A stretch of 64,000 bases of DNA from a virus (lineage: Duplodnaviria > Caudoviricetes), in the IMG/VR virus record IMGVR_UViG_3300009155_000035; one strand, given 5' to 3'. The notes beneath the pieces were generated by a model that ran no database searches, was not told the origin of the DNA, and saw nothing but the letters and a program-made list of their open reading frames with translations. A program made the translations under genes and the position numbers. Positions 1 through 38,289 of this stretch are shown here, in pieces (within the stretch, counting starts at the first letter, position 1; every line of letters starts with the position of its first letter).

Positions 1-399
1 ACTTTGTTTGTACAGATGTGCTTGTTCCAAATACAAGTATTTGAATCCACGTTGTTTGTAAATAGCACATTCTGTTTGCAATGTTGTGATACCCAAACGC
101 AGTTTTGGATTGTGGTAGTTCCAAGCAAATTGATCACACAGTGCATTTTCATCGTCGTAGCGTCGGATCAAACTAAACGCTACCAGTTTGTCTTGATCAT
201 AGTAACCCAGAACATCAGTCATTGGGTCAGTGTAACGACTATCAAATATAGGCATCACTGATGCAAATCTTTTGTGTTTACAGTACTCTCTGTAGATGTT
301 GTTCAACGCGGCAATGTTGGGATTTTGAAGATACTCCCACTTTACGTTTGTATCATAGTTGGTCTTGCTCAAGTCAATTCTGGCAAACTGATAAGTCAT
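1..399 (-). CDS. GNAT-fold protein resembling the C-terminal domain of ATE/Bpt aminoacyl-tRNA-protein transferase (runs off the window edge)
   Basis: Not in the ORF track. Manual translation from ATG 399, which overlaps the upstream TGA (ATGA): MTYQFARIDLSK...GYYDQDKLVAFSLIRRYDDENALCDQFAWNYHNPKLRLGITTLQTECAIYKQRGFKYLYLEQAHLYKQS. Open for 133 codons to the edge. Confidence 0.6.
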   Translation of the reverse strand, partial: MTYQFARIDLSKTNYDTNVKWEYLQNPNIAALNNIYREYCKHKRFASVMPIFDSRYTDPMTDVLGYYDQDKLVAFSLIRRYDDENALCDQFAWNYHNPKLRLGITTLQTECAIYKQRGFKYLYLEQAHLYKQS

Positions 400-899
400 G
401 CTCGCGGATCTTTACGATTATGGAACAACTGTGTTAGATACTCTTCTGACCAGTTGTGATAAAATCCTTTGCTGGCCATCTGCTGAGCTTTGGTGTTCAA
501 GTCGCTAAGGCATTGCACCAAAGCCAATGCATACTGACCCTGATTCATGATGACGCCATTGACGTTTTCTACATCTGCTGGGTGATCCTCCAGGGCCAAA
601 ATATCGTTACGAAGCAGGTGTTCTTGATTTGCAGCTTCTATGCTGGCACTAAACAAATCATATGGCCATTCTGCAGGATCATATGCATAGATAATAACTT
701 CCTTGTTGCCCATGCCATACCGTGCTCGGTTCTTGAGATCAAAGTAAGGGTCACTGCCTAGATAAACTTCAAATGTACGTTTGAGTCTTGCTGATCGTGC
801 AAACGGACAGGGCGGCCAACCACCCAGGGCAGGATGTGGAACTTCTACAAAGTTCTCTATCCAGGATTCTATATCTGCTTGTACTTGTTCTAGATTCAT
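396..899 (-). CDS. DUF1415-like hypothetical protein
   Basis: 167 aa. N-terminal W-x-E-x-x-V...CPFA motif. Translationally coupled on both sides. Confidence 0.55.
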   Translation of the reverse strand: MNLEQVQADIESWIENFVEVPHPALGGWPPCPFARSARLKRTFEVYLGSDPYFDLKNRARYGMGNKEVIIYAYDPAEWPYDLFSASIEAANQEHLLRNDILALEDHPADVENVNGVIMNQGQYALALVQCLSDLNTKAQQMASKGFYHNWSEEYLTQLFHNRKDPRA

Positions 900-1075
900 T
901 AGAAGAAAGGTAGTTGTGTTTTCTTGGTAGTTTCCAAATTCTCTTTTATAAGATCACTGACAATCAGTCTCTCGGTCATGCTTAGATTCATAGCTTCATT
1001 ATAGGTAAGACCACCGCGCATGTACCAACACAATTTTATCAACTCGCTTTTGATGGCCTTGGCCTCCCGCTCCAT
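899..1075 (-). CDS. Small tail/baseplate assembly chaperone ORF; probable frameshift extension of 1114..1950
   Basis: Not in the track. MEREAKAIKSELIKLCWYMRGGLTYNEAMNLSMTERLIVSDLIKENLETTKKTQLPFF*. TAATG overlap with the next gene. The frame stays open upstream to the slippery site at 1129-1135. Confidence 0.75.
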   Translation of the reverse strand: MEREAKAIKSELIKLCWYMRGGLTYNEAMNLSMTERLIVSDLIKENLETTKKTQLPFF

Positions 1076-1113
1076 ACCGTCAACTGTTTTGACGATCTGT
1101 TCTGGGGTTTGGA

Positions 1114-1950
1114 TCAGGAGGCGGCTCCGAAAAAATTTGTCATATCCAAAGTAAACACTTGGTCATACTCGTGATTGCAGTTTTGGCAAGAAATGTGTAA
1201 TGGACGAAGCTCAGACTTTTGTTTGTTGGCAATGATGTGATCTTGAATTTTACCAAACTGAGTTCGATCAAGATTTTTCAACCACTCATTGATGTGTGCT
1301 TGATCAGTGACCACAGCAGTGGGAGTCTTGATCATGGCAATATTTTGTGACAGTGCTTGTGTGGTAACTTCTGTTATTTTTTTAAGCAGTTGTCCTATTT
1401 GATGCACACGTTGGTCGCTGGGAGTGTTTTCATCTTGAATTATTTGCAATGCTTTTTGATCTTCAAACTGTGTCAAACTGTTGTTGTTCATTTGTTTGTA
1501 GTTCATTGGACACAGATATAACTGCAAGTCTCCAATACGCAACGAAGTTTCGTAATCTGGCGTTCCAATATTGTCATTGATAGTTCTCAAATCAACAGCA
1601 TAGTCGGCTTCGTTTTCACAAGCAGGGCAAGCTGTTGAAATATCTAGTTCATGCCCGTATGTGGCAATTCGAATAGCAACCAGTACTGTGTCAAGATCAA
1701 TGCTGGGCATCAGCCAGGCGTTTTTGATATTAGGCACACAGCTTTGAATCACCGAAACCACCGCAGTTCCGTTGAACAATGCGTCTGGCGTACGATAGGT
1801 AATTTCGTCTATTGTGGTCATGGGATACACTGGATATTCGCCGTTTTCAGTGGGCGCAAGTGCGCCCTGTGGATAATATTTTCCACCAGATGGCAACTTG
1901 ATGTAAATGGCGGGTTGCCGGAAATATTGGCTTAACGGGTTTGAATTCAT
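1114..1950 (-). CDS. T4 gp26-like baseplate hub assembly protein / tail assembly chaperone
   Basis: IKLPSGG...YPMT..DE, D.D..L.AIRIATYG, CPAC and CxxC motifs, C-terminal NFF. RBS AAGGA. Divergent from the tape measure gene. Confidence 0.7.
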   Translation of the reverse strand: MNSNPLSQYFRQPAIYIKLPSGGKYYPQGALAPTENGEYPVYPMTTIDEITYRTPDALFNGTAVVSVIQSCVPNIKNAWLMPSIDLDTVLVAIRIATYGHELDISTACPACENEADYAVDLRTINDNIGTPDYETSLRIGDLQLYLCPMNYKQMNNNSLTQFEDQKALQIIQDENTPSDQRVHQIGQLLKKITEVTTQALSQNIAMIKTPTAVVTDQAHINEWLKNLDRTQFGKIQDHIIANKQKSELRPLHISCQNCNHEYDQVFTLDMTNFFGAAS

Positions 1951-1965
1951 GGGTTTCCTTATCGG

Positions 1966-1991
1966 TAAATATGTAACTAGAACTATTTATA
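1966..1991. promoter_or_regulatory. Overlapping divergent T4-type late promoters
   Basis: TAAATA at +1966-1971 and TATAAATA on the minus strand at 1991-1984, in a 54-nt intergenic gap. Confidence 0.65.
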
Positions 1992-2004
1992 GGCCCGAAA
2001 ATAC

Positions 2005-5000
2005 ATGGATCAACAAATGCAAGACCTAATTGACCAGCTGAGAGACTTGGTCAAATCTCTGGGTAAAACCAGCAGTACTGGACTGGCCGGCCAGGGAGCA
2101 ATCACTGATTCAGGTATTAACAAATTGATCAATGCCCTGGGACAAGTAACTACCAAGCTTGACGGGGTAAAGCGTACTCGCGCTGAGGAAATGCAAGCAA
2201 TGAAACGGTTTACTGCAAATGTAAATCGAGCTAGCAAAGAGCAAGCCGAACAAGCCGACGAGATTGCTAAAAATATTCAGAAAACCAAAGAAGAGGCCGA
2301 CGCTCGGGCTGAGGCTGCTAGAATTGCCAAACTCAGTGCCAAGGAACTTGCAGAAGAGCAAGCGGCTGCTGCCGCTGACAACATCAAGCGAGAGCGACAA
2401 ATACGCAACGATGGTCTCAAGAATTTAATATCTGATAGTCGCAGACAAACCAGTTCAAGTCGAGCAGTATTTGACGAACTATCTACCACTGGCGGAAGCT
2501 TAGAATTACTTAAAAATAAATTTTTAGATCTTGGCGGAGATAGTTTAAAAGCTCAGGCAGGTTTGCAATTATTTGTAGCTGGCATACAAGGTACTACCAA
2601 AGCTTTGACTAACATGACCGCCGCAGTTTACAAAGGTGAACGTGGCGCAATTACGTCAGCTAAAGCACTTACTGATTTTGCTACTCCAATTCTTGACGTA
2701 ATAGACAAACTAGGAATGCTGGTCAGCTTCCTGGGAATGTTTACACCAGGTGGCCTCCTGGCTAAAGGTGCTGTAGTGCTTGGTGGTGCATTGCTGTCAG
2801 CTGGTTCAGCCGCTGGCAAACTAGCAGTGAAATTCAATGAACTTGCCGCAGAACAAGCAGACAAGCTGTTCAAGAGCTTTAGAGAAATTAGCCAAGTTGG
2901 TGCCGCTGGTGCCGCAGGCATGGATGATGTCTTTACTACACTTCAAACACTGGGTATGTCTGTAAGTGAAATTGAAGACTTTAATAAATTGATTGTTAGT
3001 AGTGGGCAAAAGCTTGGGTTGCTTGGCGCTACAGCAGCCGAAGGTAAAAAAGAACTAGCATCAGTAGCTGGCGGTTTAGTAAAAAGCGATCTGGGTAGAA
3101 ATTTAGAATTATTAGGTGTGAGTGCGCAAGAACAGCGAGAAGCCGCACTCACCTACATGACTATCCAGGCTAGAACTGGGCAGTTACAACTTAAAAATAC
3201 CAACCAATTGATACAGGAGTCGGGCAAATTTGTTCAAGAACTTGACATGGCAGCTCGTCTAACTGGTCAAACTCGTAAAGAACAAGAGGCCGCACGTGAA
3301 GCCAACATGGCAGAAAGTAGATTCCGTGCCGCACAATTTGCCGCACAGCAACGTGGAGATCAAGGTGAAGTTCAAAGACTAAACAAGGCTGGTGACATGG
3401 CCGCATTGTTACGAGGTCTGGGCCTAGAAGATTTAGCCAAAGGTACACTACAGTATGCAGCCAGTGGCGGTGCAATGACCACACCAGAATCAATACAGGC
3501 CGCAATGAGTCTTGGATTGCAAAATGTATTGAACAATCCTAATATTTCAGCAGTGGGCGCATTAGAACAAAGCCTTGGTGTTGCAAAAGATCAGTTAAAA
3601 ACACTAGCTGAGACCAACAAGTATACTGGTGAAATAGTAGGCATACAACCAAATATTCCCAAGACACTTGATGCTATTCAGCGACTAGGTGAAATACAAA
3701 AAGCCGCTGCCAAAGAAGGTATGACGGTCGAAAAGTTCTTGGCCAGCGAGCAAGGCAAGGCAATGTTGGCCAAAGGCGACACTGCCAAGATGACAGATGC
3801 CGCACGTAATATGCAAAATGCCGCCTTGATGCAAGATAGCATAGTAAAAACTTACAATGGCGCGGCAATTATACACGAAGCCGCTTCCAAAACGTTTGCT
3901 GAAGCTGTTAATTTGTTTGCAAAAACTGTAGGTGCAAAACCAGTTGCCGGGGGACAACTACAGGTTGGACAACAAGCAACAGGCACACCACCAACGCTAC
4001 CTACACTAGCATCTGCAACAGCCGCAGAATCTGCAACTCAAACAGCTAAAGCGACCCAACAAATAGCAGATGCCAAAACAAAAGAAGCAGCCGTTGCAAT
4101 AAAGCAAGTTAAAGAAGCCGAAGCTGAACTTGACCGACTGAAAAAATTAAAAGCACCTGTAGAACAACAACAAAAAGCACAAGAAAAAATTGTACAAGCA
4201 GTTAGTGAACGTGATCGTTTAGAACAAGAAGAAATCAAAGCCGCACGTGAAGCGGCTCAGCGAAATCTTGAAGCCAGAAATGCACGTCAACGTGCTAGAC
4301 GTGAAGCAAATGCAGCCAAAGCCGCAGGCAGTACTGCTACAGCACCCACAGCACCCACAGCACCCACAGCTGGACCGGCCAAAGCCGCAGGCAGTACTGC
4401 TACAGCACCCACAGCTGGATCAGCCACTACAGGGGCAAGTAGCTATTTAGAAAAACTTATACAAGCTGAATCAGGTGGTAAAAATATTGCTAATCGCAGT
4501 GGCCAAGGCGGTACATCAACTAGTACTGCGTTTGGACTAACACAATTTACTAAACCCACATTTGAAGGACTAGTTAAACAAGCTGGTCCAGATAATCCCT
4601 TATATGGTAAAACTTGGGATGATTACAAGCAAGACACTAACTTGCAACGGGAAGCCACACGGCAATTAACTGATAAAAATCGTAGCTTTTTAGCAAACCA
4701 AAAAATCAGAACCACAGATTCAGCACTGTACCTGGCGCACTTTTTAGGACCAACTGGTGCAACTAAAGCATTGACTTTGCCAGATTCAGCACCGATTACT
4801 GATGCAGTTAGTCCAGAGCAATTGGATGCAAATCCTATGCTACAAAAAATGTCCACTGTGGGTGATCTAAAAACTTGGGCTGATAAAAAGATGGGCGGTG
4901 TTGGTTATGCCATGGGCGGAATAGTAAGTGGTCCAACTTCTGGGTATCCTGCAACCTTACATGGAACAGAAGCCATTGTTCCTTTGCCAAATGGAAAGAC

Positions 5001-5220: not shown

Positions 5221-7011
5221 ATGTCATGGAAGAAATATTTTAAAGTTGCCAATGCCGGTGGAGAGCTTAGTCCACTAAGCGGACGAGATGCGGATGGCTT
5301 GCCAGGGTACGGGCGCAATGACGGTCGAGATCCACTGAGAGGACATGCAGAAATTGCATATCGCAATTATGCCAGTCGGTTGCCCGAAGTTTACACAGGA
5401 CATCCAAACCGCGTTGCTCGATACAATCAATACGAACAAATGGACATGGACAGTGAAATCAATGCATGTCTTGACATTCTTGCTGAGTTCAGCACACAAG
5501 CAACCAAAGACGACAATGTTCCCTTCCAGGTTAACTACAATGATACCCCTACCGATAATGAAGTAAAAATTATCAAACAGCAGTTACAGCAGTGGGTCAA
5601 ACTCAACAAGCTAGATCAAAGAATTTTCCGTATCTTCCGTAACACACTCAAATATGGTGATCAAGTATTTGTGCGTGATCCAGAAACATTTGAAATGTAC
5701 TGGGTAGATATGACCAAGGTTGCCAGAGTTATTGTTAACGAATCCGAAGGCAAACGTCCTGAGCAGTACGTTATCCGTGACATTAATCCCAACTTTCAAA
5801 ATTTAACAGTAGCCGCAAAAACTACCACAGACTATCAGTCTAATCCGGGTACATCTGGATATGTTGCACCTTACAACTACACAGTGCCTGGCGCAGGTGG
5901 TGGCGGAGGTAGTGGTGGCGCAGGCGCCAGCAGATTCAATGCCGCAATGAACGAAACTGTGTTAGATGCCAAGCACGTAGTACATCTTAGTTTAACTGAA
6001 GGACTGGACTACTACTGGCCATTTGGCATGAGCATTTTAGAAACAATTTTCCGTGTGTTCAAGCAAAAAGAACTGCTGGAAGATTCTGTGTTAATCTATC
6101 GTGTTGCCCGTGCTCCAGAACGTCGTGTGTTTAAAATTGACGTGGGTAACATGCCGTCACACATGGCCATGGCCTTTGTTGAGCGTGTTAAAAACGAAAT
6201 TCACCAACGTAGAATCCCAAGTCACACTGGCGGTGGTAACAATATCATGGATAGCAGTTATAATCCATTGAGTATTAACGAAGATTACTTTTTCCCACAA
6301 ACAGCAGACGGTCGTGGTAGTAGCGTAGACACATTACCGGGTGGTGCTAATCTGGGCGAAATTGACGACTTAAAGTATTTTAACAACAAAATGTGCCGTG
6401 GTTTGCGTGTGCCCAGTAGCTATTTGCCCACAGGTCCAGATGACAGCGATCGCCCCATGAATGACGGTCGTGTAGGTACTGCGCTGATTCAAGAATATCG
6501 TTTTAACCAGTACTGCGAACGCTTACAACGTTTGGTTGTACAAAAACTTGATGACGAATTCAAAATGTTCATGCGTTGGAGAGGATTTAATATTGACAGT
6601 GGACTGTTCTCTATTAACTTTAATCCACCACAAAACTTTGCCAGCTATCGCGAAGCCGAACTTGATACCACTAGAGTAACCACTTTTAGTTCATTAGAAG
6701 CAGTTCCTTACTTGAGCAAGCGTTTCTTGTTAAAACGTTACTTAGGTCTTACTGAAGAAGAAATTCGTGAAAACGAAGAGCTGTGGGAAGAAGAACGTGG
6801 CGAACCAGAATTACCAGCACCAACAGGACAGGATTTACGTAGTGTTGGCGTTACTCCAGCTGATATTGAAAGTGATATCACAACAGGTGAAGACTTGTCA
6901 AATATTGGTGGCGCAGAAGCTGGGGCAGTGGGTGCACCACCCACTGGATCTCAACCAGCAGCCGGTGCAGGAGTATCGGCAGCAGCCAGTGCAACACCGC
7001 CAGCAGGATAA
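5221..7011 (+). CDS. Portal protein (T4 gp20-like)
   Basis: LED...IYR..RAPERRVF.IDVGNMP, EDYFFP, LPGG.NLG.IDD..YF..K....L.VP.S motifs. Confidence 0.95.
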   Translation: MSWKKYFKVANAGGELSPLSGRDADGLPGYGRNDGRDPLRGHAEIAYRNYASRLPEVYTGHPNRVARYNQYEQMDMDSEINACLDILAEFSTQATKDDNVPFQVNYNDTPTDNEVKIIKQQLQQWVKLNKLDQRIFRIFRNTLKYGDQVFVRDPETFEMYWVDMTKVARVIVNESEGKRPEQYVIRDINPNFQNLTVAAKTTTDYQSNPGTSGYVAPYNYTVPGAGGGGGSGGAGASRFNAAMNETVLDAKHVVHLSLTEGLDYYWPFGMSILETIFRVFKQKELLEDSVLIYRVARAPERRVFKIDVGNMPSHMAMAFVERVKNEIHQRRIPSHTGGGNNIMDSSYNPLSINEDYFFPQTADGRGSSVDTLPGGANLGEIDDLKYFNNKMCRGLRVPSSYLPTGPDDSDRPMNDGRVGTALIQEYRFNQYCERLQRLVVQKLDDEFKMFMRWRGFNIDSGLFSINFNPPQNFASYREAELDTTRVTTFSSLEAVPYLSKRFLLKRYLGLTEEEIRENEELWEEERGEPELPAPTGQDLRSVGVTPADIESDITTGEDLSNIGGAEAGAVGAPPTGSQPAAGAGVSAAASATPPAG

Positions 7012-19434: not shown

Positions 19435-22400
19435 ATGGCCGTTACAAGAATTAAAAATAATCAGATCACTGATGCAACAGTGGTTGCTAGTTCAAAGCTA
19501 GTTGACTACTCAATCACCGCTGCAAAAATTGCCAATAATTTAACCTACAACAGTGATCTTACGGTTGTTGGTAATCTTACTGTTCAGGGTAATACAACCA
19601 CAATCGAAACAACAAACTTGATTGTTGAAGATCCGTTGATTTTGTTAGCTAAAGAACAAACAGCGGCCCCTGCACTGGACATTGGTTTTATTGGTAAGCG
19701 TGGTACGTCAGACAATATTGCTTTTGTCTGGGACGAAAGTTCACAGCAATTTGTCACAGTGTTCACATCAAGTGAAAACACAAACACAGTTATTACCATC
19801 AATAGCTATGCAAGTTTTCAAACTTTAAATTCCAATGTAACTGGAAATCTATCAGTTACTGGAACTACATCTGCCACAGGTAATGTAACTGTTGGCAATA
19901 TTTTTGTTTCTGGAAATACTAAAACAATTGATGCTGGGTTAAATGTTATTGGTAACGTTCAAGACCCTGTTTCAGCACAAGACGCAGCCACCAAAGCTTA
20001 TGTTGATGGATTTATCAGTGGTGGTATCACAATTGAAGATGATACTTCAAACACAACGGTTCTTGCCCTAGACGGAACACTAGAACTGTTGGGCACTGCG
20101 AGTGAAGTTGAAGTGCTTATCACCAATGTTGATCAAGTAACTTTTGGTCTGCCAGCAAATGTCACAGTTGCTAACTTACTCTCAGCAACAACTCTCAGTG
20201 CAACTGGTAATGTAATTGGCGGTAATATCAAAACAGCAGGATTGGTCAGTGCAACTGGTAATGTAATTAGTGGTAACATCAACACAGCAGGATTGGTCAG
20301 TGCAACTGGTAATGTAATTAGTGGTAACGTAGTAACCAGTGGTGCTGTCAGTGCAACTGGAAATGGTACATTTGGTAATATTTCAACAACTGGTACTTTC
20401 CAGGCAGCTACTTTAAGTGCCACAGGCAACATCACTGGTGGTAACTTACTAACTGGTGGACTAATTAATGCAACTGGCAACGTCACAGCTGGAAATCTAA
20501 CAACTGCTGGGCTAACATCGACTGCTACATTAAATGCTTCTGGTAATGCCAACGTTGGCAATTTAGGCACCAGCGGATTAATCACAGCAACAGGTAATGT
20601 CAACACATCGGCAGGCGTATTGGCTGTCGGTAATGTAACTGCTGGTAACATCAATACCGGCGCTCAAGTGCTAGCACTTGGCAACATCACAGGCGGCAAC
20701 ATTATTACTGGCGGAGTAATCACTGCAACTGGTGGTATCAGTACAGCAGCCGGTGTAACAGCAACTGGCAATGTCACTGGTGGTAATTTGATCACTGGTG
20801 GTGCAATTAGTTCCAGTGGTAATATTTCTGGTGCAAATGTAAACGCAACTGGCAACATTGTTCCCACAGCCAATGTAACATACAACTTGGGCAGTTCAAC
20901 AGCACAGTGGAAAGACTTGTATGTTGGAGGCTCTACAATTTATCTAGGAAATGTTCAGTTAAAAGCTGCCACAGCCAACACTTTGACAGTTACCGCAACT
21001 GATGGCACCACTTTGGGTTCTGTAACTGCCGCAACAGTGAGTGCTAGTGGTAATGTAACAGGTGGTAATGTACTAACTGGTGGATTGATTAGTGCCACTG
21101 CTACCATAACTGGTGGCAACTTGGCCACAGGTGGTACAGCAAGTGCCGCAGGTAACATCACTGGTGGTAATGTACTAACTGGTGGATTGATTAGTGCCAC
21201 TGCTACCATAACTGGTGGCAACTTGGCCACAGGTGGTACAGCAACTGTGACCGGCAATATCACTGGTGGTAATTTGATCACTGGTGGATTGGCATCTGTA
21301 TCGGGTGCAATTACAAGCGGTAGTACAATATCAGCAACAGGTAATATCACTGGTGGCAACTTAGGTACTGGTGGAGCAGCAGCTATATCTGGTGCAATTA
21401 CAAGCGGTAGTACAATATCAGCAACAGGTAATATCACTGGTGGTAATTTAGTTACAGGTGGACAAATAGACGCAACTGGCAACGTAAACGGTGGCAACGT
21501 TAACACCGGGGCTGTTAAAAACACAGCCGCAATGACCATTGCCACCACAGCTGGTAATATTAATTTAGAACCAACTGGTAACATCGTACTAAACAACAAG
21601 TATATTAATGGTGTAAGTCAGCCTGTACAAGACAACGATGCTGCCAGCAAGATTTATGTTGACAACATGGTGTCAACACAGTTGGCATATCACCAAGCAG
21701 TATTGGCAGCTACAGTGGGTAACTTGGCTGCAGCCACAGGTGGTGCCATTACGTACAACAACGGCACAGCTGGAGTTGGTGCAACATTGACCACGACTGG
21801 TGCATTTACCTTAATTGATACTGCAAACGTTGCCACAGTTGGCACACGTATTCTTGTCAAGAACCAAGCTGATGCTACACAGAACGGTGTTTATGTTTAC
21901 ACAAGTCCAACAGTAATTACTCGTTCTACAGACGCAGACACATATGGACCAAACAGTTCTACCGACTTGAGTATTAACGACTACTTCTTTGTCACTGGTG
22001 GCAATGTCAATGCTGGTAGTGCCTATATTGTTGATGCACCTTCAGGAGTTATTACTTTTGGTACCAGCAGTATTACGTTTGCTCAATTCAGTAGTTCACA
22101 AACATACACAGCTGGCAACGGCGTCAGCATCAATGGCACAGTAATTTCGGCCAAAGTTGACAACGATACCACAGCATTTGATGGCTTAGGTAATATCATT
22201 GTCAAAGCTGGTGCAAACTTAACAACACCAAACATTGGTGCGGCCACTGGTACAAGCCTGAGCGTAACAGGTAATGTGTCAGGCGGTAACCTAACCACTG
22301 GTGGATTAATTTCTGCAACTGGTAACATCACTGGTGGTAATGTACTAACCAGCGGACAAGTAAGTGCTACCGGTAATGGTACATTTGGTAATATCTCAAC

Positions 22401-25400
22401 AACCGGAACATTTAGTGCCGCAAGTTTAAGTGCAACTGGAAATATCACAGGAGGCAATTTGCTCACTGGCGGTATTTTAAGCGCAACCGGCAATGTGTCG
22501 GGTGGTAACTTGATCACTGCTGGTTTGATTACAGCCACAGGCAACGTCAACACATCAGCCGGTGTTTTAGCTACAGGTAACGTAATTGGTGGCAACTTAG
22601 TCACAGGTGGCCTAATATCAGCTACTGGAAATATTACCGGCTCAACAATATTTGGGCAACAAGCTAATATTACCGGCAATACTCACAGTGGAAATGTAAT
22701 ATCGTCTGGCATTATCACTGCCACTGGCAATGTGTCTGGTGGTAATTTAACAACAGCTGGTTTGATTACAGCTACAGGAAATATCAATGGTGGCAATGTT
22801 ATTAGTTCTGCACTAGTACAAGGTACAACTGTAAGTGCGTCTGGTAACATTGTTGCTGGTAATGCCAATATCACTTCTGCAGTCAACTCAGCCACAGTGT
22901 CAGCTACAGGAAATATCAATGGTGGCAATGTTATTAGTTCTGCACTAGTAGAGGGTACAACTGTAAGTGCGTCTGGTAACATTGTTGCTGGTAATGCCAA
23001 TATCACTTCTGCAGTCAACTCAGCCACAGTGTCAGCTACAGGCAATGTCACAGGTGGCAATTTAATCACTGCTGGGTTGATCACAGCAACCGGCAACATC
23101 ACCGGTGGCAACTTAAACATATCTGGCCTAGCATCGGTCACTGGCAACGTAATAAGCGGTAACTTAACTACTACTGGACTAACGTCAACTACTACATTAA
23201 ATGCCTCGGGCAATGCCAACGTAGGTAATTTAGGTACCAGTGGATTAATTACAGCCACAGGAAATATCAATGGCGGCAATGTTGGCACTGCCGGACAAGT
23301 AAGTGCAACAGGTAACATTACTGGTGGTAACTTGATCACTGCTGGTTTGATTACAGCAACAGGTAATGTCAACACATCGGCAGGCGTATTGGCTACTGGC
23401 AACGTCACAGCTGGTAATTTAAACACAGGCGGAAACGTAATCACAGGCGGGTTAATTACTGCTACTGGCAACATCAGCACCGGTGCTAACTTAATTGCCA
23501 GCGGATATGCCACAGTAACTGGTAACGTCACAGGTGGTAATGTACTGACAGGTGGATTAATTTCAGCAACTGCCAACATCACTGGTGGCAACTTACTAAC
23601 TGGCGGTTTAATTTCAGCAACTGCCAACATCACTGGTGGCAACTTACTAACTGGCGGTTTAATTACTGCAACTGGTAACATTACAGCCGGTAACATCACC
23701 ACAGCTGGCCAGGCCAACTTAGGTAACATTGTCATCAGTGGTAACAACATCACTGGCACAAATGGTAAAGTTACATTTAACTCTGCTGTAGCCGATGTTG
23801 ATTTTATATTCTCTGGTGACAGTATTGCAAACTTGCTGTATATTGACGCAGGGACAGACACAGTTAATATTGGTACAGGCACCCCAGTGGCAAATGCCGT
23901 ACTTAATATTGGTACCACCAATTCGATAATTATTCCAGTGGGTACTACTGGTCAACGACCACCAACTCCTGCTACTGGTATGTTGCGTTTCAACACTAGT
24001 TTGGATGCAGTTGAATTTTATGATGCAACCCAATGGACCATTGCTGGTACAGAGTTTACAATTGTTGTTGCAAATACACAACAAGGTAATGGTACACAAG
24101 TAAACTTTGGACTACCAGGTAACTCAACAACAGCAAGTACAATTGTTGCAATTAACGGCGTTTTACAGACTCCGGTGACTGCGTACTCTGTTGCTGGCAA
24201 TGTTTGTACATTTACAGAAGCGCCACAATCAACTGATACCATTGATTTCCGTATTCTAACTACCACAACAACGGTGGCTGCTATTTCTGGAGCAGGTGGT
24301 GGCACAGTTGAAGCAAGTTCAACTGAAGCCACTATCAATATTACTGGCAACTTAGTTGTTACTGGCGGAACGCTTACAGGTGATGGTAGTGGACTAACTA
24401 ACCTAAACGTATCTGGAAATTCAATTAGCTTTGGTACTTCTAATGTGGCAGTGAGAACCAACAACGGCAATGTTGAAACAAACGTTAATGGTACCACAGT
24501 ACAAACTGTTAGTCCAGGACTAGTGGCAATCACAGGAGACTTGAGTGTTACTGGCAATGCAACATTGAGTGGCAACATCCTAGGCGACAGAATACAAAAC
24601 GGTACAACTACCATCGATATTCAAACACCCAATGGCAATGCCAACATCACAGTGGGCGGTACAAGTAATGTTGCTGTGTTTAGCACAACTGGTGCTAATA
24701 TTACAGGCACTTTAAGTGCTAGCGGCAACATCACTGGCAGTTATATTTTAGGTAATGGTAGCCAACTAACCGGCATCGATGCCACAAGTATTCAGAGTGG
24801 TACTAGTAACGTAAGAGTTACAAGTTCAGGTGGTAATGTAACAACCAGTGTTGGTGGAACAGCCAACGTGGTAGTTGTAACTGGCACCGGTGCCAACGTT
24901 GCAGGTACTTTAAGTGCTAGCGGCAATGTCAGTGGTGGCAACCTAAGTGGTACTAACATTGTGGGAACATTGACCACAGCGGCACAGACCAATATTACTT
25001 CAGTGGGTACTTTGGGTGCATTGAGTGTTACTGGCAACATTACTAGTGGCAACCTAAGTGGTACTAACATTGTGGGAACATTGACCACAGCGGCACAAAC
25101 CAATATCACAAGTGTGGGCACATTGGGCTCATTGAGTGTTACAGGTAACGTAACGCCAGGTGGTATATCCACAGCTGGTAACATCACTGCTGGTTACTTG
25201 TTTGGTAATGCTAGCTTGGTAACTGGACTTAGTGCTAGCAAGATTGTTAACGGCACAAGTGAAGTTAACGTTGCAACCAGTGGTGGTAACATTACAGTTA
25301 AAGTTGGCGGCGATTCAGTTGTTACATTTGCAGGCGCCAACCTTTTAGCAAATGTAATACCTAACTATGGTATTGTTGCAAGTGGTAACATCACTGGCAG

Positions 25401-26268
25401 TTATATTTTAGGTAATGGTAGCCAGCTGACAGGTATTGATGCTACAAGTATTCAAAGCGGCACCAGTAACGTAAGAGTTACAAGTTCAGGTGGTAATGTG
25501 ACAACCAGTGTTGGCGGTACTGCAAACGTGGTAGTTGTAACTGGCACAGGTGCCAATATTGCAGGCACCATAAGTGCAAGTGGTAACATCACTGGTGGCA
25601 ACTTAGCCACAGGTGGTACAGTAAGTGCAACCGGCAATGCCACAGTTGGTAATATCAGTGCCACAAATCACACAGGTACTACTGTAAGTGTAACAGGTAA
25701 TGTGTCAGGCGGTAACCTAACCACTGGTGGATTAATTTCTGCAACTGGTAACATCACTGGTGGCAACTTGAGTGTAAGCACTGGTACAGTAACATTGGGC
25801 AACATTGTTAATAGCAATGCTAACGGAGTAGGTAACATTGGTAGCTCAGGCACCTACTTTAATACGGTGTTTGCTAAGGCAACGTCGGCACAATACGCTG
25901 ACTTGGCAGAAAAGTACATAGCAGATGCAGAATACGAACCAGGTACTGTTGTGGCATTTGGCGGCGAACACGAAGTTACAATCGGTGCATTTGATTCTGA
26001 TCGAGCAGTAGCTGGTGTGGTTTCTACAAATCCAAGTTATATCATGAATGGAACATTACAAGGCGAATTTATTGCCACAGTAGCATTAACTGGGCGTGTT
26101 CCGACTCGTGTTGTGGGCAAAGTACGCAAAGGAGATTTAATGGTATCGGCAGGCAACGGTTGTGCTCGTGCCGAACTAGATCCTCGAGTTGGCACTGTAA
26201 TTGGTAAAGCTCTTGAAAACTTTGATGGTGTAGAAGGTGTAATTGAAGTTGTTGTAGGACGAGTCTAA
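19435..26268 (+). CDS. Giant repeat tail fibre/adhesin with C-terminal peptidase-G2-like intramolecular chaperone
   Basis: 2277 aa with many (S/T)ATGN(I/V)TGGNL.T.G.I repeats. C-terminus AQYADLAEKY...EPGTVV...VVSTNP...VALTGRVP..V.G...KGD. Confidence 0.8.
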   Translation: MAVTRIKNNQITDATVVASSKLVDYSITAAKIANNLTYNSDLTVVGNLTVQGNTTTIETTNLIVEDPLILLAKEQTAAPALDIGFIGKRGTSDNIAFVWDESSQQFVTVFTSSENTNTVITINSYASFQTLNSNVTGNLSVTGTTSATGNVTVGNIFVSGNTKTIDAGLNVIGNVQDPVSAQDAATKAYVDGFISGGITIEDDTSNTTVLALDGTLELLGTASEVEVLITNVDQVTFGLPANVTVANLLSATTLSATGNVIGGNIKTAGLVSATGNVISGNINTAGLVSATGNVISGNVVTSGAVSATGNGTFGNISTTGTFQAATLSATGNITGGNLLTGGLINATGNVTAGNLTTAGLTSTATLNASGNANVGNLGTSGLITATGNVNTSAGVLAVGNVTAGNINTGAQVLALGNITGGNIITGGVITATGGISTAAGVTATGNVTGGNLITGGAISSSGNISGANVNATGNIVPTANVTYNLGSSTAQWKDLYVGGSTIYLGNVQLKAATANTLTVTATDGTTLGSVTAATVSASGNVTGGNVLTGGLISATATITGGNLATGGTASAAGNITGGNVLTGGLISATATITGGNLATGGTATVTGNITGGNLITGGLASVSGAITSGSTISATGNITGGNLGTGGAAAISGAITSGSTISATGNITGGNLVTGGQIDATGNVNGGNVNTGAVKNTAAMTIATTAGNINLEPTGNIVLNNKYINGVSQPVQDNDAASKIYVDNMVSTQLAYHQAVLAATVGNLAAATGGAITYNNGTAGVGATLTTTGAFTLIDTANVATVGTRILVKNQADATQNGVYVYTSPTVITRSTDADTYGPNSSTDLSINDYFFVTGGNVNAGSAYIVDAPSGVITFGTSSITFAQFSSSQTYTAGNGVSINGTVISAKVDNDTTAFDGLGNIIVKAGANLTTPNIGAATGTSLSVTGNVSGGNLTTGGLISATGNITGGNVLTSGQVSATGNGTFGNISTTGTFSAASLSATGNITGGNLLTGGILSATGNVSGGNLITAGLITATGNVNTSAGVLATGNVIGGNLVTGGLISATGNITGSTIFGQQANITGNTHSGNVISSGIITATGNVSGGNLTTAGLITATGNINGGNVISSALVQGTTVSASGNIVAGNANITSAVNSATVSATGNINGGNVISSALVEGTTVSASGNIVAGNANITSAVNSATVSATGNVTGGNLITAGLITATGNITGGNLNISGLASVTGNVISGNLTTTGLTSTTTLNASGNANVGNLGTSGLITATGNINGGNVGTAGQVSATGNITGGNLITAGLITATGNVNTSAGVLATGNVTAGNLNTGGNVITGGLITATGNISTGANLIASGYATVTGNVTGGNVLTGGLISATANITGGNLLTGGLISATANITGGNLLTGGLITATGNITAGNITTAGQANLGNIVISGNNITGTNGKVTFNSAVADVDFIFSGDSIANLLYIDAGTDTVNIGTGTPVANAVLNIGTTNSIIIPVGTTGQRPPTPATGMLRFNTSLDAVEFYDATQWTIAGTEFTIVVANTQQGNGTQVNFGLPGNSTTASTIVAINGVLQTPVTAYSVAGNVCTFTEAPQSTDTIDFRILTTTTTVAAISGAGGGTVEASSTEATINITGNLVVTGGTLTGDGSGLTNLNVSGNSISFGTSNVAVRTNNGNVETNVNGTTVQTVSPGLVAITGDLSVTGNATLSGNILGDRIQNGTTTIDIQTPNGNANITVGGTSNVAVFSTTGANITGTLSASGNITGSYILGNGSQLTGIDATSIQSGTSNVRVTSSGGNVTTSVGGTANVVVVTGTGANVAGTLSASGNVSGGNLSGTNIVGTLTTAAQTNITSVGTLGALSVTGNITSGNLSGTNIVGTLTTAAQTNITSVGTLGSLSVTGNVTPGGISTAGNITAGYLFGNASLVTGLSASKIVNGTSEVNVATSGGNITVKVGGDSVVTFAGANLLANVIPNYGIVASGNITGSYILGNGSQLTGIDATSIQSGTSNVRVTSSGGNVTTSVGGTANVVVVTGTGANIAGTISASGNITGGNLATGGTVSATGNATVGNISATNHTGTTVSVTGNVSGGNLTTGGLISATGNITGGNLSVSTGTVTLGNIVNSNANGVGNIGSSGTYFNTVFAKATSAQYADLAEKYIADAEYEPGTVVAFGGEHEVTIGAFDSDRAVAGVVSTNPSYIMNGTLQGEFIATVALTGRVPTRVVGKVRKGDLMVSAGNGCARAELDPRVGTVIGKALENFDGVEGVIEVVVGRV
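21061..21244 (+). repeat. Exact 82-nt duplication in the fibre gene (offset 102 nt)
   Basis: GGTGGTAATGTACTAACT...GGTACAGCAA at 21061 and 21163. Confidence 0.9.
22264..25763 (+). repeat. Exact 74-nt dispersed direct repeat (22264-22337 and 25690-25763)
   Basis: GTAACAGGTAATGTGTCAGGCGGTAACCTAACCACTGGTGGATTAATTTCTGCAACTGGTAACATCACTGGTGG twice. Offset 3426 nt, in frame. Confidence 0.9.
22769..23042 (+). repeat. Near-exact 132-nt tandem duplication (44 aa)
   Basis: The unit start CAGCTACAGG recurs at 22769, 22901 and 23033. The copies differ only at CAA/GAG. Confidence 0.9.
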
Positions 26269-34833: not shown

Positions 34834-34890
34834 CATGCCCGTTTTTACGTTCTTCAATAAATATTACTAACATTTTTGAAGGATGCGATT

Positions 34891-37800
34891 ATGGCACTAG
34901 TATCTCCCGGCGTAGAAGTTACAGTTGTTGATGAGTCAAATTATATACCAGCGGCAACTAACTCTGTTCCATATGTTTTGATTGCGACAGCACAAAACAA
35001 AATCTCTGGCACTGGAACTGGCGTAGCAGCCGGTACTTTGGCAGTCAACGCAGGCAAGGTTTATTTAGTAACCAGCCAGCGTGATTTGGCAGCAACATTT
35101 GGTAACCCGTTCTTTTACAAGACATCGGCTGGTACACCAATTAACGGTTATGAGCTTAACGAATATGGCTTGTTGGCTGCGTTCTCTGTTTTAGGTATTA
35201 GTAATCGCGCTTATATCCAACGTGCAGATATTGACTTATCAGAGTTAACAGCAAGTTTAGTTCGCCCAACAGGCGCACCAACTGATGGTACTTACTGGTT
35301 AGATACATCATCAACATCATGGGGCGTGTTCCAGTGGAATCAAACAACTGGTGCATTCACTAGCAAAACTCCCACAGTTATTACTAGCACAACACAGTTA
35401 ACCGGTGGCGTGCCAAGTGCAAACATTGGTAGTATTGGTGACTATGCAGTTGTTGCAACAAATGCAAACAATCCTGTATACTACAAAAACTCAGAAAACA
35501 TGTGGGTACTTGTTGGTAGCGACGCTTGGAAAATGAGCTGGCCTACAATACAGGCATCAAATTCTCTTGACGGGGTGAGCCTAACAGCAGGTAACACAAT
35601 TGTTATTAACGGAACAACGGTTACAGTGCCAGTAGCACCAAACAACAACCTTAATGGTTTGGTAACTGCAATTAACAATGCAAGTATTGCTGGTGTGACT
35701 GCCGAAGCTGACTCAAGTAGCCGTTTGGTAATTTATGCAGACAGTGACGCAGAAAGTGACGGCTCATCTGCTAATGGTGGCATTGTACACATTGATGTAT
35801 TGAGTACTGCTGGACTATTAACAGCATTGGGTGTTAGTGTAGGAAATTACTATGCACCAACATTGCAACAAAGTCCAAACTACACAGTTCCGCGTTGGAG
35901 AACCAGTGACGTTGAACCTCGCCCAACTGGTTCTGTTTGGAACATGTTGACAGCAGTTAACCAAGGCGCAAGCATTATTATCAAGCGTTATGATTCAGTG
36001 CTTGGAGCATTCGTTACACAAAGCGCACCAATTTATGCAAATGGTTGGAGTGCCGACAAAGGACTAGACCCTGCAGGTGGTGGTAAGAATATTCCAGCTG
36101 ACACATTATATGTTCAGTACAATACTGATCCAGAATTGTCTGGTACTGGATTGTACAACAACACACTGACTCTCAAGGCATATACTCGCCTTGCAGCCGG
36201 TGCAACGGTCATCACCGGCGATGACACTGCTCCAACATTTACCGCATCAAATACATTTACAATTCAGGCCAGCACAGCAAATAGCACAAGTTTAACATCT
36301 CCAGTAACTGCCACTGTTAATGGTGTTACTCCAGCTGACTTTGTAACAGCAGTTAGTGCAGCCGGCGTACCAAATGTTTCCGCCAGCGTTACTAGCGATG
36401 GCTCAATTGCATTTACACATGCTCTTGGTGGCGACATTGTTTTGATTGATTTAACCGGAAATCCAGTAGCAGACGCAGGTTTTAATACTACAGTTACCGG
36501 TGTGTCTGATGCAACAGGCGAATTAACTGGTGGGTTAATTTTATCTAACTGGATCCCATTAACTTACATTGCATCCGCAAGTGCTCCAAGCCTTGATCCT
36601 GCTGATGGACGCCTATGGTACTACAGTGCAACTAATCAAGTCGATATCATGATTCAAAGTGGTACAGAATGGCAAGGTTATCGCAATGTTAGCTTGGACG
36701 TTCGTGGATATAATTTAACACAAACAGATCCAAACGGACCTATTGTTTCTGCATCTGAACCCCTATTGCAAAGCGATGGCACAGATTTGGTTTATGGTGA
36801 TTTGTGGATCGACACCAGCAACTTAGAGTTGTATCCAGTGGTTAAGCGTTGGGAACTGGTCAATGACGTTGCAACCTGGGTGTCTATTGACAATACCGAT
36901 CAAACAACAAGCAATGGTATCTTGTTTGCTGACGCACGTTGGGCAACAAACGGCACAACTGATCCAATTACTGATAACTTCCCAACAATCAAGAGTTTGT
37001 TAACTAGTGATTATTTAGACTTGGATGCACCAGATCCAACACTGTATCCAGCTGGGACATTGTTGTGGAACACACGCCGAAGTGGTTTTAACGTAAAATC
37101 ATTCCAGGTTGATTATTTTAACCCAACAACATTCAGTGTTGACAGCTACAGCGCCGCAACAAGTTATGCAGTTAATGATTTGGTATTGTATGAAGGTATC
37201 ATTTATATTGCTACTGCCCCTGGCAATGGTAACGTACCAACCGACACCAACTTCTGGAGCCCACTGGAAACCAATGCTTGGGTAACTGCTACTGGAAACA
37301 AAGCAGATGGCAGTCCATACATGGGTCGTTTGGCACAGCGTCAATTGGTAGTGGCTGCAATGAAGAGTGTAATTGACACACAAGACACTTTGCGTGAAGA
37401 ACAAAATGTGTTCAACTTGATTGCCTGCCCAAATTATCCAGAGCTGATTCCTAACATGGTTGCATTGAACAACGAACGTAGTAACACAGCGTTCGTTGTT
37501 GGTGATACACCATTGCGCTTACCACCAAATGGGGCAGACATCGTGGCCTGGGCAACCAACAACACTGGCACTGGATATGTCACTGGCGATGGATTAACAA
37601 TTGGTGATCCTTATGTTGGCGTGTTCTACCCAAGTTGCCGTACAACAGATCTAGGCGGAAGCCAAGTTGTACAACCACCAAGTCACATGATGTTGCGTAC
37701 TATTGTACGCAGTGACGAAGTTGCTTATCCATGGTTGGCACCAGCTGGTGTACGTCGTGGTGTAATTGACAATGCTGAACAAATTGGTTATGTTAATGCG

Positions 37801-38289
37801 GCAACAGGTGAGTTTGTGACAATTGCCACAGGCCAAGGTCTACGTGACGTATTGTATGTTAACAAGATTAACCCAATTACGTTCATTCCTGGTGTTGGTA
37901 TTACTAACTATGGTAACAAGACTGAAAGTCCAATTACAAGTGCTATGGATCGTATCAACGTTGCACGTTTGGTTGCATACATACGTGGACGCCTGAATGA
38001 AATTGGTAAACAGTTTGTATTTGAACCTAACGATCAAATCACTCGTAATGAAATCACAAATGCTATCGACGGTCTCATGGTAGATCTAGTGGCAAAACGT
38101 GGTATCTATGACTACTTGATTGTGTGTGATTTGAGTAACAACACACCAGCACGTATTGATCGTAACGAACTATATGTTGATATTGCTATCGAGCCTGTTA
38201 AGGCAGTTGAATTTATCTACATTCCAGTACGTATTAAGAATACTGGCGAATTGGCTGCAGGCCAAACAGCTAGCTCTGCTACGGTTTAA
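34891..38289 (+). CDS. Tail sheath protein (T4 gp18-like) with large insertions
   Basis: MALVSPGVEVTVVDES start, F...FG.P, ..AP AG..RG, LY..KINPI, DRINV.RL, FEPND..TR motifs. 1132 aa. Confidence 0.95.
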   Translation: MALVSPGVEVTVVDESNYIPAATNSVPYVLIATAQNKISGTGTGVAAGTLAVNAGKVYLVTSQRDLAATFGNPFFYKTSAGTPINGYELNEYGLLAAFSVLGISNRAYIQRADIDLSELTASLVRPTGAPTDGTYWLDTSSTSWGVFQWNQTTGAFTSKTPTVITSTTQLTGGVPSANIGSIGDYAVVATNANNPVYYKNSENMWVLVGSDAWKMSWPTIQASNSLDGVSLTAGNTIVINGTTVTVPVAPNNNLNGLVTAINNASIAGVTAEADSSSRLVIYADSDAESDGSSANGGIVHIDVLSTAGLLTALGVSVGNYYAPTLQQSPNYTVPRWRTSDVEPRPTGSVWNMLTAVNQGASIIIKRYDSVLGAFVTQSAPIYANGWSADKGLDPAGGGKNIPADTLYVQYNTDPELSGTGLYNNTLTLKAYTRLAAGATVITGDDTAPTFTASNTFTIQASTANSTSLTSPVTATVNGVTPADFVTAVSAAGVPNVSASVTSDGSIAFTHALGGDIVLIDLTGNPVADAGFNTTVTGVSDATGELTGGLILSNWIPLTYIASASAPSLDPADGRLWYYSATNQVDIMIQSGTEWQGYRNVSLDVRGYNLTQTDPNGPIVSASEPLLQSDGTDLVYGDLWIDTSNLELYPVVKRWELVNDVATWVSIDNTDQTTSNGILFADARWATNGTTDPITDNFPTIKSLLTSDYLDLDAPDPTLYPAGTLLWNTRRSGFNVKSFQVDYFNPTTFSVDSYSAATSYAVNDLVLYEGIIYIATAPGNGNVPTDTNFWSPLETNAWVTATGNKADGSPYMGRLAQRQLVVAAMKSVIDTQDTLREEQNVFNLIACPNYPELIPNMVALNNERSNTAFVVGDTPLRLPPNGADIVAWATNNTGTGYVTGDGLTIGDPYVGVFYPSCRTTDLGGSQVVQPPSHMMLRTIVRSDEVAYPWLAPAGVRRGVIDNAEQIGYVNAATGEFVTIATGQGLRDVLYVNKINPITFIPGVGITNYGNKTESPITSAMDRINVARLVAYIRGRLNEIGKQFVFEPNDQITRNEITNAIDGLMVDLVAKRGIYDYLIVCDLSNNTPARIDRNELYVDIAIEPVKAVEFIYIPVRIKNTGELAAGQTASSATV

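Follow-up and report, generated by a model that had tools for sequence, protein, structure and literature searches.

The virus sequence IMGVR_UViG_3300009155_000035 (Duplodnaviria; Caudoviricetes), from a giant phage of a freshwater metagenome and analyzed here over a window of 64,000 nucleotides (nt) that comprises the whole stretch, carries on its minus strand a gene related to gene 26 of phage T4, and on the basis of our comparison this gp26-like baseplate-hub assembly chaperone gene very probably uses a programmed -1 ribosomal frameshift to yield two proteins, a short form of 278 amino acids (aa) and a long form of 350 aa. The support for this reading is strong and is comparative rather than experimental. 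It comes from a slippery signal near the end of the gene, the conservation of that signal, coding selection on the -1 frame that begins at the slip site, RNA structure immediately downstream and the colinearity of the long product with T4 gp51. A previous sequence-only reading of this DNA had proposed that the gp26-like gene encodes a frameshifting chaperone pair, and the conservation of both the heptamer and the -1 frame supports the proposal.

The open reading frame (ORF) for the 278-aa protein ends with ACA AAT TTT TTC GGA GCC GCC TCC TGA, in which the slippery heptamer T TTT TTC (Table 1) lies four codons ahead of the stop, exactly where the sequence-only reading had located it and in phase. 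From the heptamer, the -1 frame is open for 76 codons: it reads RSRLLIQTPEQIVKTVDG and then continues into a 58-aa ORF (ATG 1075, stop 901..899). That ORF had been described as a hidden gene downstream; it is real and lies in the -1 frame, but it is better read as the C-terminal 58 of the 76 extension residues, the tail of the long form, than as a separate gene. The trans-frame product would thus comprise 274 + 76 = 350 aa. In the Pfam search, the 278-aa protein matched PF12322 (T4_baseplate; E 1.9e-17, 64.1 bits against a cut-off of 24.5) over residues 58-274, which correspond to profile positions 41-218 of 219, and phrog_150 ('baseplate hub') matched it with E 3.8e-18. Neither Pfam nor PHROGs gave a match for the 58-aa ORF or the 76-aa extension. 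The AlphaFold model of the short form had a predicted local distance difference test (pLDDT) score of 87.4, with a disordered 0-frame tail (residues 275-278).

The gp26-like gene was found in 95 records of the phage collection, one copy in each, all of them jumbo phages with about 30% identity, including the RaK2/121Q/GAP32/CBB group, PA5oct, Atu_ph07, Phosso and SCTP-2; each jumbo phage contained a single PF12322 gene. A nucleotide search of the locus in the phage collection gave no match. The protein search returned 5699 homologs, the closest of which nearly all had 278 aa, and no in-frame fusion of body and extension was present among them; one 349-aa homolog that was considered as such a fusion was rejected as an N-terminal over-call. 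For comparison of the loci, we collected 80 IMG/VR loci (73 of them complete) and 14 isolate or huge-phage records, which represented 44 lineages with less than 80% identity (freshwater metagenome phages, 13 cultured jumbo phages and a 595-kb uncultured phage) whose protein identity ranged from 28% to 71%. Codon and RNA statistics were based on 35 representatives with less than 80% identity.

The heptamer was in phase in all 44 lineages, with the form TTTTTTC in 42 and TTTTTTT in two. At the level of individual records, T TTT TTC was in phase in 73 of 73 complete IMG/VR loci, in the window and in the 13 further records except RsoM2USA and RAS14. These two phages, the most divergent cultured members, have T TTT TTT (positions 1668-1675 and 1527-1533, respectively) in a run of seven to nine T. 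The distance from the heptamer to the 0-frame stop varied from 1 to 21 codons across loci, and the codon ahead of the heptamer specified any of ten residues (N, G, D, T, S, Y, A, H, R and V) but always had the form NNT. Two outcomes that the sequence-only reading had named as refuting it did not occur: from the heptamer to the body of the -1 ORF, all homologs in this comparison were free of stops, and a non-slippery sequence was present at this site in none of them. Codon usage at the two Phe positions was invariant (TTT in 35/35 and then TTC in 35/35 representatives), whereas synonymous codons were mixed in all other columns with a conserved residue; in two such columns for Phe, the counts were 23 TTT and 7 TTC, and 24 TTT and 8 TTC, and Phe codons elsewhere in the same genes were TTT in 285 cases and TTC in 86. 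With lineages treated as independent, the chance of finding the TTT TTC pair in all 35 representatives was about 6e-27. In the sequences compared, the heptamer and the open -1 frame are therefore conserved well beyond the amino-acid requirement, which had been suggested as a check of whether the NFF residues alone would account for them.

These data bear directly on the possibility that no recoding takes place, and that the heptamer and the open frame are by-products of protein or composition constraint, or of sequencing error. Phe-Phe is indeed conserved across PF12322, and in these AT-leaning genomes TTT is favored by about 3 to 1. However, T4-type genes retain Phe-Phe with other codons (see below), the codon pattern is far outside what such a preference would produce by chance, and a -1 frame of 76 codons that is open, conserved and foldable would not be expected by chance either. 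With regard to sequencing error, finished genomes of isolates are in agreement with metagenome assemblies obtained independently. An assembly slip does not account for the T6 run, because window positions 850..2100 are identical to the contig of the source run and about 85 independent assemblies share the same run. We therefore consider an absence of recoding to be highly improbable.

The extension itself appeared to be a conserved protein segment. Counted from the heptamer, it comprised 75-77 aa in almost every freshwater locus and between 69 and 82 aa in the cultured phages, and its alignment was almost gapless from the first post-slip codon (FFRxRLL) to LPFF. The extensions of RsoM2USA and RAS14 were longer, at 82 and 80 aa. 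In the window, the -1 frame starts with Arg-Ser-Arg-Leu-Leu, the first codon being CGG. Arg was encoded by CGN at this first codon in 40 of 44 lineages, and each of the four bases occurred in the third position (G in 12, A in 7, C in 13 and T in 8); the 0-frame codon that overlaps it had 19 forms, for G, E, A, V, D and other residues. Since CGN was kept with a free third base while the overlapping 0-frame codon varied, the -1 frame has been under selection already ahead of the 0-frame stop, in a region that a separately initiated protein would not read. AlphaFold modeling of a 78-residue segment gave a mean pLDDT of 89.9 and predicted helices at residues 2-8, 11-39, 45-49 and 53-73. Helices thus begin ahead of ATG 1075 in this model, which suggests that the part preceding the ATG belongs to the fold.

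An alternative is that the -1 ORF is a separate small gene with its own start, or one reached by termination-reinitiation, and that no fusion is made. An ATG does exist in the window at position 1075, ATGA stop-start overlaps occur in a few relatives, and gene callers and depositors have annotated ORFs of 39-76 aa in this region. On the other hand, no start codon is conserved: the first Met of the extension was located at residue 1, 6, 8, 14, 17, 18, 29, 30 or 36 and was absent in PA5oct, and the column that contains the Met of ATG 1075 is L, M, Y, F, H or I elsewhere. The 17-35 residues ahead of the candidate starts are conserved and lie within the predicted fold, and neither the Arg CGN upstream of the 0-frame stop nor the invariant synonymous T TTT TTC would be explained by a separate gene. 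In addition, ATG 1075 has no Shine-Dalgarno (SD)-like run ahead of it, in agreement with the sequence-only reading, and base pairing in the predicted stem described below takes up two of its three bases. Such a separate gene is, in our opinion, improbable.

Downstream of the heptamer, a stem-loop is predicted to begin after 3-6 nt (Table 1). In the window, folding of the 91 nt from the heptamer gave a minimum free energy of -29.8 kcal/mol (z score, -2.9). A -1 frameshift cassette is expected to have a stimulatory RNA structure about 5-9 nt downstream, and the predicted stem was taken as such a structure. Across the 35 representatives, the downstream 85 nt had a mean z score of -3.0, as against -0.04 in 105 control windows from the same genes (Mann-Whitney p 8e-12), and nucleotides +7..+14 were paired with a mean probability of 0.88. 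Structure was assessed by averaged base-pair probabilities together with a test of a named helix. The commonest helix, GGCUUUUGUxUC with GAxACAAAAGCC, had 62% of cells paired compared with 53% in shuffles and double changes at 11 of 14 pairs; none of 500 shuffles and no slid control reached these values.

The same features are relevant to a second alternative, in which RNA polymerase slips on the T6 run and adds one U to some mRNAs. Homopolymer runs can cause such slippage, and the resulting protein would be the same. However, the run was exactly six T and bounded by C in 42 of 44 lineages, with a non-T base upstream in 43 of 44, and the bacterial sites known for slippage have runs that are longer (about 8-9 bases or more). 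A run selected for transcriptional slippage should become longer, yet the C at position 7 has been retained. Furthermore, a stable stem at 3-6 nt represents the classic spacing of a ribosomal stimulator. There appears to be little likelihood that polymerase slippage accounts for the long form.

On the basis of programmed ribosomal frameshifting, expression of the gene would probably proceed as follows. Most ribosomes would terminate at TGA 1116..1114 and release the short form. A fraction would pause at the stem-loop 3-6 nt downstream of the heptamer, with two tRNA-Phe on UUU UUC; in these ribosomes, a tandem -1 slip from UUU UUC to UUU UUU would be followed by Arg (CGG) in the -1 frame, and the slipped ribosomes would append a helical domain of 76 residues. 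The PF12322 body would be common to the two forms, and the C-terminal domain would be the sole difference between them. The short form would correspond to T4 gp26, which ends just past Phe-Phe, and the long form to gp51, which has a C-terminal tail. With a common body and this correspondence, one gene would therefore supply the two-gene pair of T4, at a ratio set by slip efficiency.

Both gp26 and gp51 of T4 have been listed as hub assembly chaperones (Leiman et al. 2010, Table 2; PMC3004832). The gp26-like protein and these two T4 proteins all scored above the PF12322 cut-off, with the family matching residues 1-206 of gp26 and residues 1-201 of the 249 residues of gp51, and in both phages the genes adjoin hub and tape-measure genes. 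As in T4 gp26, the short form of the window ends just past the conserved Phe-Phe. T4 gene 26 itself ends with GAG TTC TTT GAG TTA CTA TAA, which keeps Phe-Phe, is non-slippery and closes the -1 frame at once. In 29 distinct T4-type gp26 tails, the protein ends with ...EFF(K/E)xL before the stop; Phe-Phe was encoded by TTC TTT in 14, TTC TTC in two and TTT TTT in one, and an in-phase heptamer was found in none. Where Phe-Phe was present, the -1 frame was closed after two codons, except in two cases in which it ran into the overlapping next gene. We also observed that the end of T4-type gp26 (T4 5803-6429; L102-L149) resembles FFRxRLL and the xFKLL of gp51, not the 0-frame tails of jumbo phages. 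It looks like gp26 is a gp51-type protein truncated just past the EFF/xFKLL motif.

Comparison of profiles indicated that the predicted trans-frame product is colinear with T4 gp51, the longer paralog of gp26. In a local alignment of the trans-frame and gp51 families (probability 95%, E 3e-8), which extended across the junction as far as the C-terminus, FFRxRLL..PEEI fell on xFKLLLNPDEiF and sY.ea..LS..eR.ii on Y..sIM.MIP.ER.ia, so that the colinearity of the long form includes the LL..P(D/E)EI and Y....M.P.ER motifs. An attempt to align the extension profile with the single T4 gp51 sequence by hhalign was discarded, as it returned only a spurious region (probability 8%). In precomputed tables, gp51 relatives carry an extra C-terminal family, PF28602, and this family is not recorded there on the small ORFs of jumbo-phage records. 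Sequence searches of solved structures gave no match for the extension or for gp51. In an unrooted tree, the gp26, gp51 and jumbo-phage genes formed three separate clades. Several differences from T4 should be noted: T4 uses two genes without a frameshift instead of one jumbo-phage gene, it also makes an internal-start product, 26', the tail of gp51 is about 25 residues shorter than the extension of the window, and identity is low. Whether one need, namely a short and a long chaperone for the hub or the tape measure in a set ratio, has been solved in two ways, by the gp26/gp51 pair of T4-type phages and by the single frameshifted gene of jumbo phages, seems to us an evenly balanced question.

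Several points weigh against the frameshift reading or parts of it. First, the extension profile alone matched the gp51 family weakly (E 3e-4, probability 39%), in the correct region, and a BFVD fold search gave only weak gp51 rows and no clear recovery. Second, RNAalifold gave no single consensus structure on the alignment of 35 sequences, because the 3' arm of the stem is placed differently between lineages. Third, some slippage during transcription is in principle conceivable on the U6 run. Fourth, the 0-frame stop overlaps a -1 ATG (ATGA) in a minority of lineages (Phosso, Atu_ph07, L008, L052 and L063; at 3334-3337 in L001), and re-initiation in such lineages could yield a small free protein in addition to the frameshift product. 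Finally, the shift by the ribosome, its efficiency, the ratio of the two forms and the partner of the added domain are features that we infer from the sequence comparison.

It has been reported that the -1 frameshift of tail assembly chaperones in long-tailed phages, exemplified by lambda gpG and gpGT, is conserved (Levin 1993; Xu, Hendrix, Duda 2004, 2013; as reviewed in PMC5009743). The gp26-like gene resembles this system in that a small gene for an assembly helper, adjoining the tape-measure gene, has a heptamer a few codons ahead of its stop, and a -1 shift there would give an abundant short form and a rare long form with a common N-terminal body (forms that are proposed from sequence for the window) in a ratio fixed by slip efficiency. 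However, no sequence or fold relationship links the gp26-like protein to the lambda proteins: Pfam and PHROGs gave no tail-assembly-chaperone match, and fold searches with the model (Foldseek and VIA-align wide) gave only generic helical hairpins. In lambda, gpG has about 140 aa, whereas the body of the window protein is a 274-aa PF12322 domain with Cys pairs; the part added in the long form of the window is, in contrast with gpGT, only 76 aa. Chaperones of the G/GT type are characterized by a short form that binds the tape measure and an extension that binds the tube protein. Gene G is also co-oriented with the tape-measure gene and lies just upstream of it, whereas the gp26-like gene adjoins the tape-measure-like gene but is divergent from it, as the sequence-only reading had stated. 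By these comparisons, the resemblance to G/GT is one of mechanism and logic, not of homology, and the earlier designation of the gene as a G/GT-like tail chaperone holds for the former and fails for the latter. The E/E+E' system of P2 is also a frameshift system and is said to use a T-rich heptamer. The combination of a heptamer and a stem-loop at short spacing in bacterial translation is also known from dnaX (tau/gamma) and insertion sequence (IS) element cassettes (PMC5009743). Unlike these cassettes, the window has no visible SD-like stimulator upstream of its heptamer, the heptamer is U-rich instead of A AAA AAG, and the outcome would be an extension and not a truncation.

The coordinates of the frameshift elements and of the neighboring genes are shown in Table 1.

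Table 1. Location of the proposed frameshift elements and neighboring genes in the window.
Feature	Coordinates	Strand	Remarks
gp26-like baseplate-hub assembly chaperone gene	1950..1114	minus	0-frame product of 278 aa, the short form; TGA 1116..1114
Slippery heptamer T TTT TTC	1135..1129	minus	X XXY YYZ phase; P-site TTT, A-site TTC (Phe273-Phe274)
-1 frame extension	1129..902; TAA 901..899	minus	76 codons from the heptamer without a stop
Predicted stimulatory stem-loop	1056..1125	minus	5' arm GCCGCCUCCUG (1125..1115) holds the 0-frame stop; 3' arm 1069..1056
Next gene, 167 aa, unknown function	396..899	minus	weak DUF6875 and phrog_28122 matches
Coiled-coil protein, 1066 aa	2005..5205	plus	tape-measure-like by position; divergent from the gp26-like gene
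T4-type portal protein (gp20)	5221..7011	plus	Pfam PF07230, E 6.7e-105; phrog_213

The gp26-like gene sits in a tail/hub morphogenesis module, adjoining the tape-measure-like gene and the portal gene, and the window is otherwise a structural module with genes for the head protease, major head protein, sheath and terminase. The 1066-aa coiled-coil protein had no Pfam or PHROG match. The order of portal, large structural protein and divergent gp26-like gene was also found in PA5oct and RaK2, and the RaK2 record likens the large structural protein to a tape-measure protein. The PA5oct record carries an electrospray ionization tandem mass spectrometry (ESI-MS/MS) note on the portal and the large neighboring protein and none on the gp26-like protein, and the CBB record names the gp26-like homolog 'structural protein'. 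On the other side of the extension, the ATG of the 167-aa gene overlaps the TAA of the -1 frame (TAATG, 901..897) and has no SD-like run ahead of it; because of this overlap and the lack of an SD, the 167-aa protein might be translated only by coupling to frameshifted ribosomes. This neighbor is not conserved in Phosso, RaK2 or PA5oct. A lake-water metatranscriptome contig of 157 nt has exactly the sequence of a 5' portion of the gp26-like gene (1784-1929) and ends short of the slip site; it is compatible with expression of the gene, with DNA carry-over as an alternative. Elsewhere in the window, the tail sheath gene (34876-38289) is unusually long, encoding 1137 aa, and a 2277-aa ORF (19435-26268) had almost no family match, apart from one PHROG of unknown function at its C-terminus.

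None of 12 annotated isolate records marked a frameshift join at this locus; truncated small ORFs were listed instead. Our survey of the literature on gp26, gp51, the baseplate hub, RaK2 and PA5oct found no report of a frameshift, and the paper on the phAPEC6 virion proteome could not be related to the gp26-like gene. To our knowledge, no publication describes a -1 frameshift that is conserved in jumbo-phage members of the gp26/gp51 family of hub chaperones. Chaperone pairs made by frameshifting are characteristic of long-tailed phages, and we know of none described for the T4-type lineage; the roles of T4 gp26 and gp51 in hub assembly have been unclear for decades. The present finding would extend the principle of the frameshifted pair to a large and globally distributed group of jumbo or huge phages and to a non-homologous protein family. 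It would also correct the annotation of dozens of deposited genomes, which lack the 350-aa product and list spurious ORFs of 39-76 aa in its place. In addition, it provides a testable hypothesis for T4 gp26 and gp51, as well as a natural experiment on gene duplication versus recoding as ways of fixing the ratio of two protein forms. If the T4 pair and the jumbo-phage gene are indeed two solutions to one need, gp51, the 'hub assembly catalyst' of T4, would be equivalent in function to lambda gpGT, with a C-terminal helical domain that serves as an adaptor to a hub or tube partner, and the G/GT principle would have been invented a second time, independently, in contractile-tail phages that were thought to be without it.

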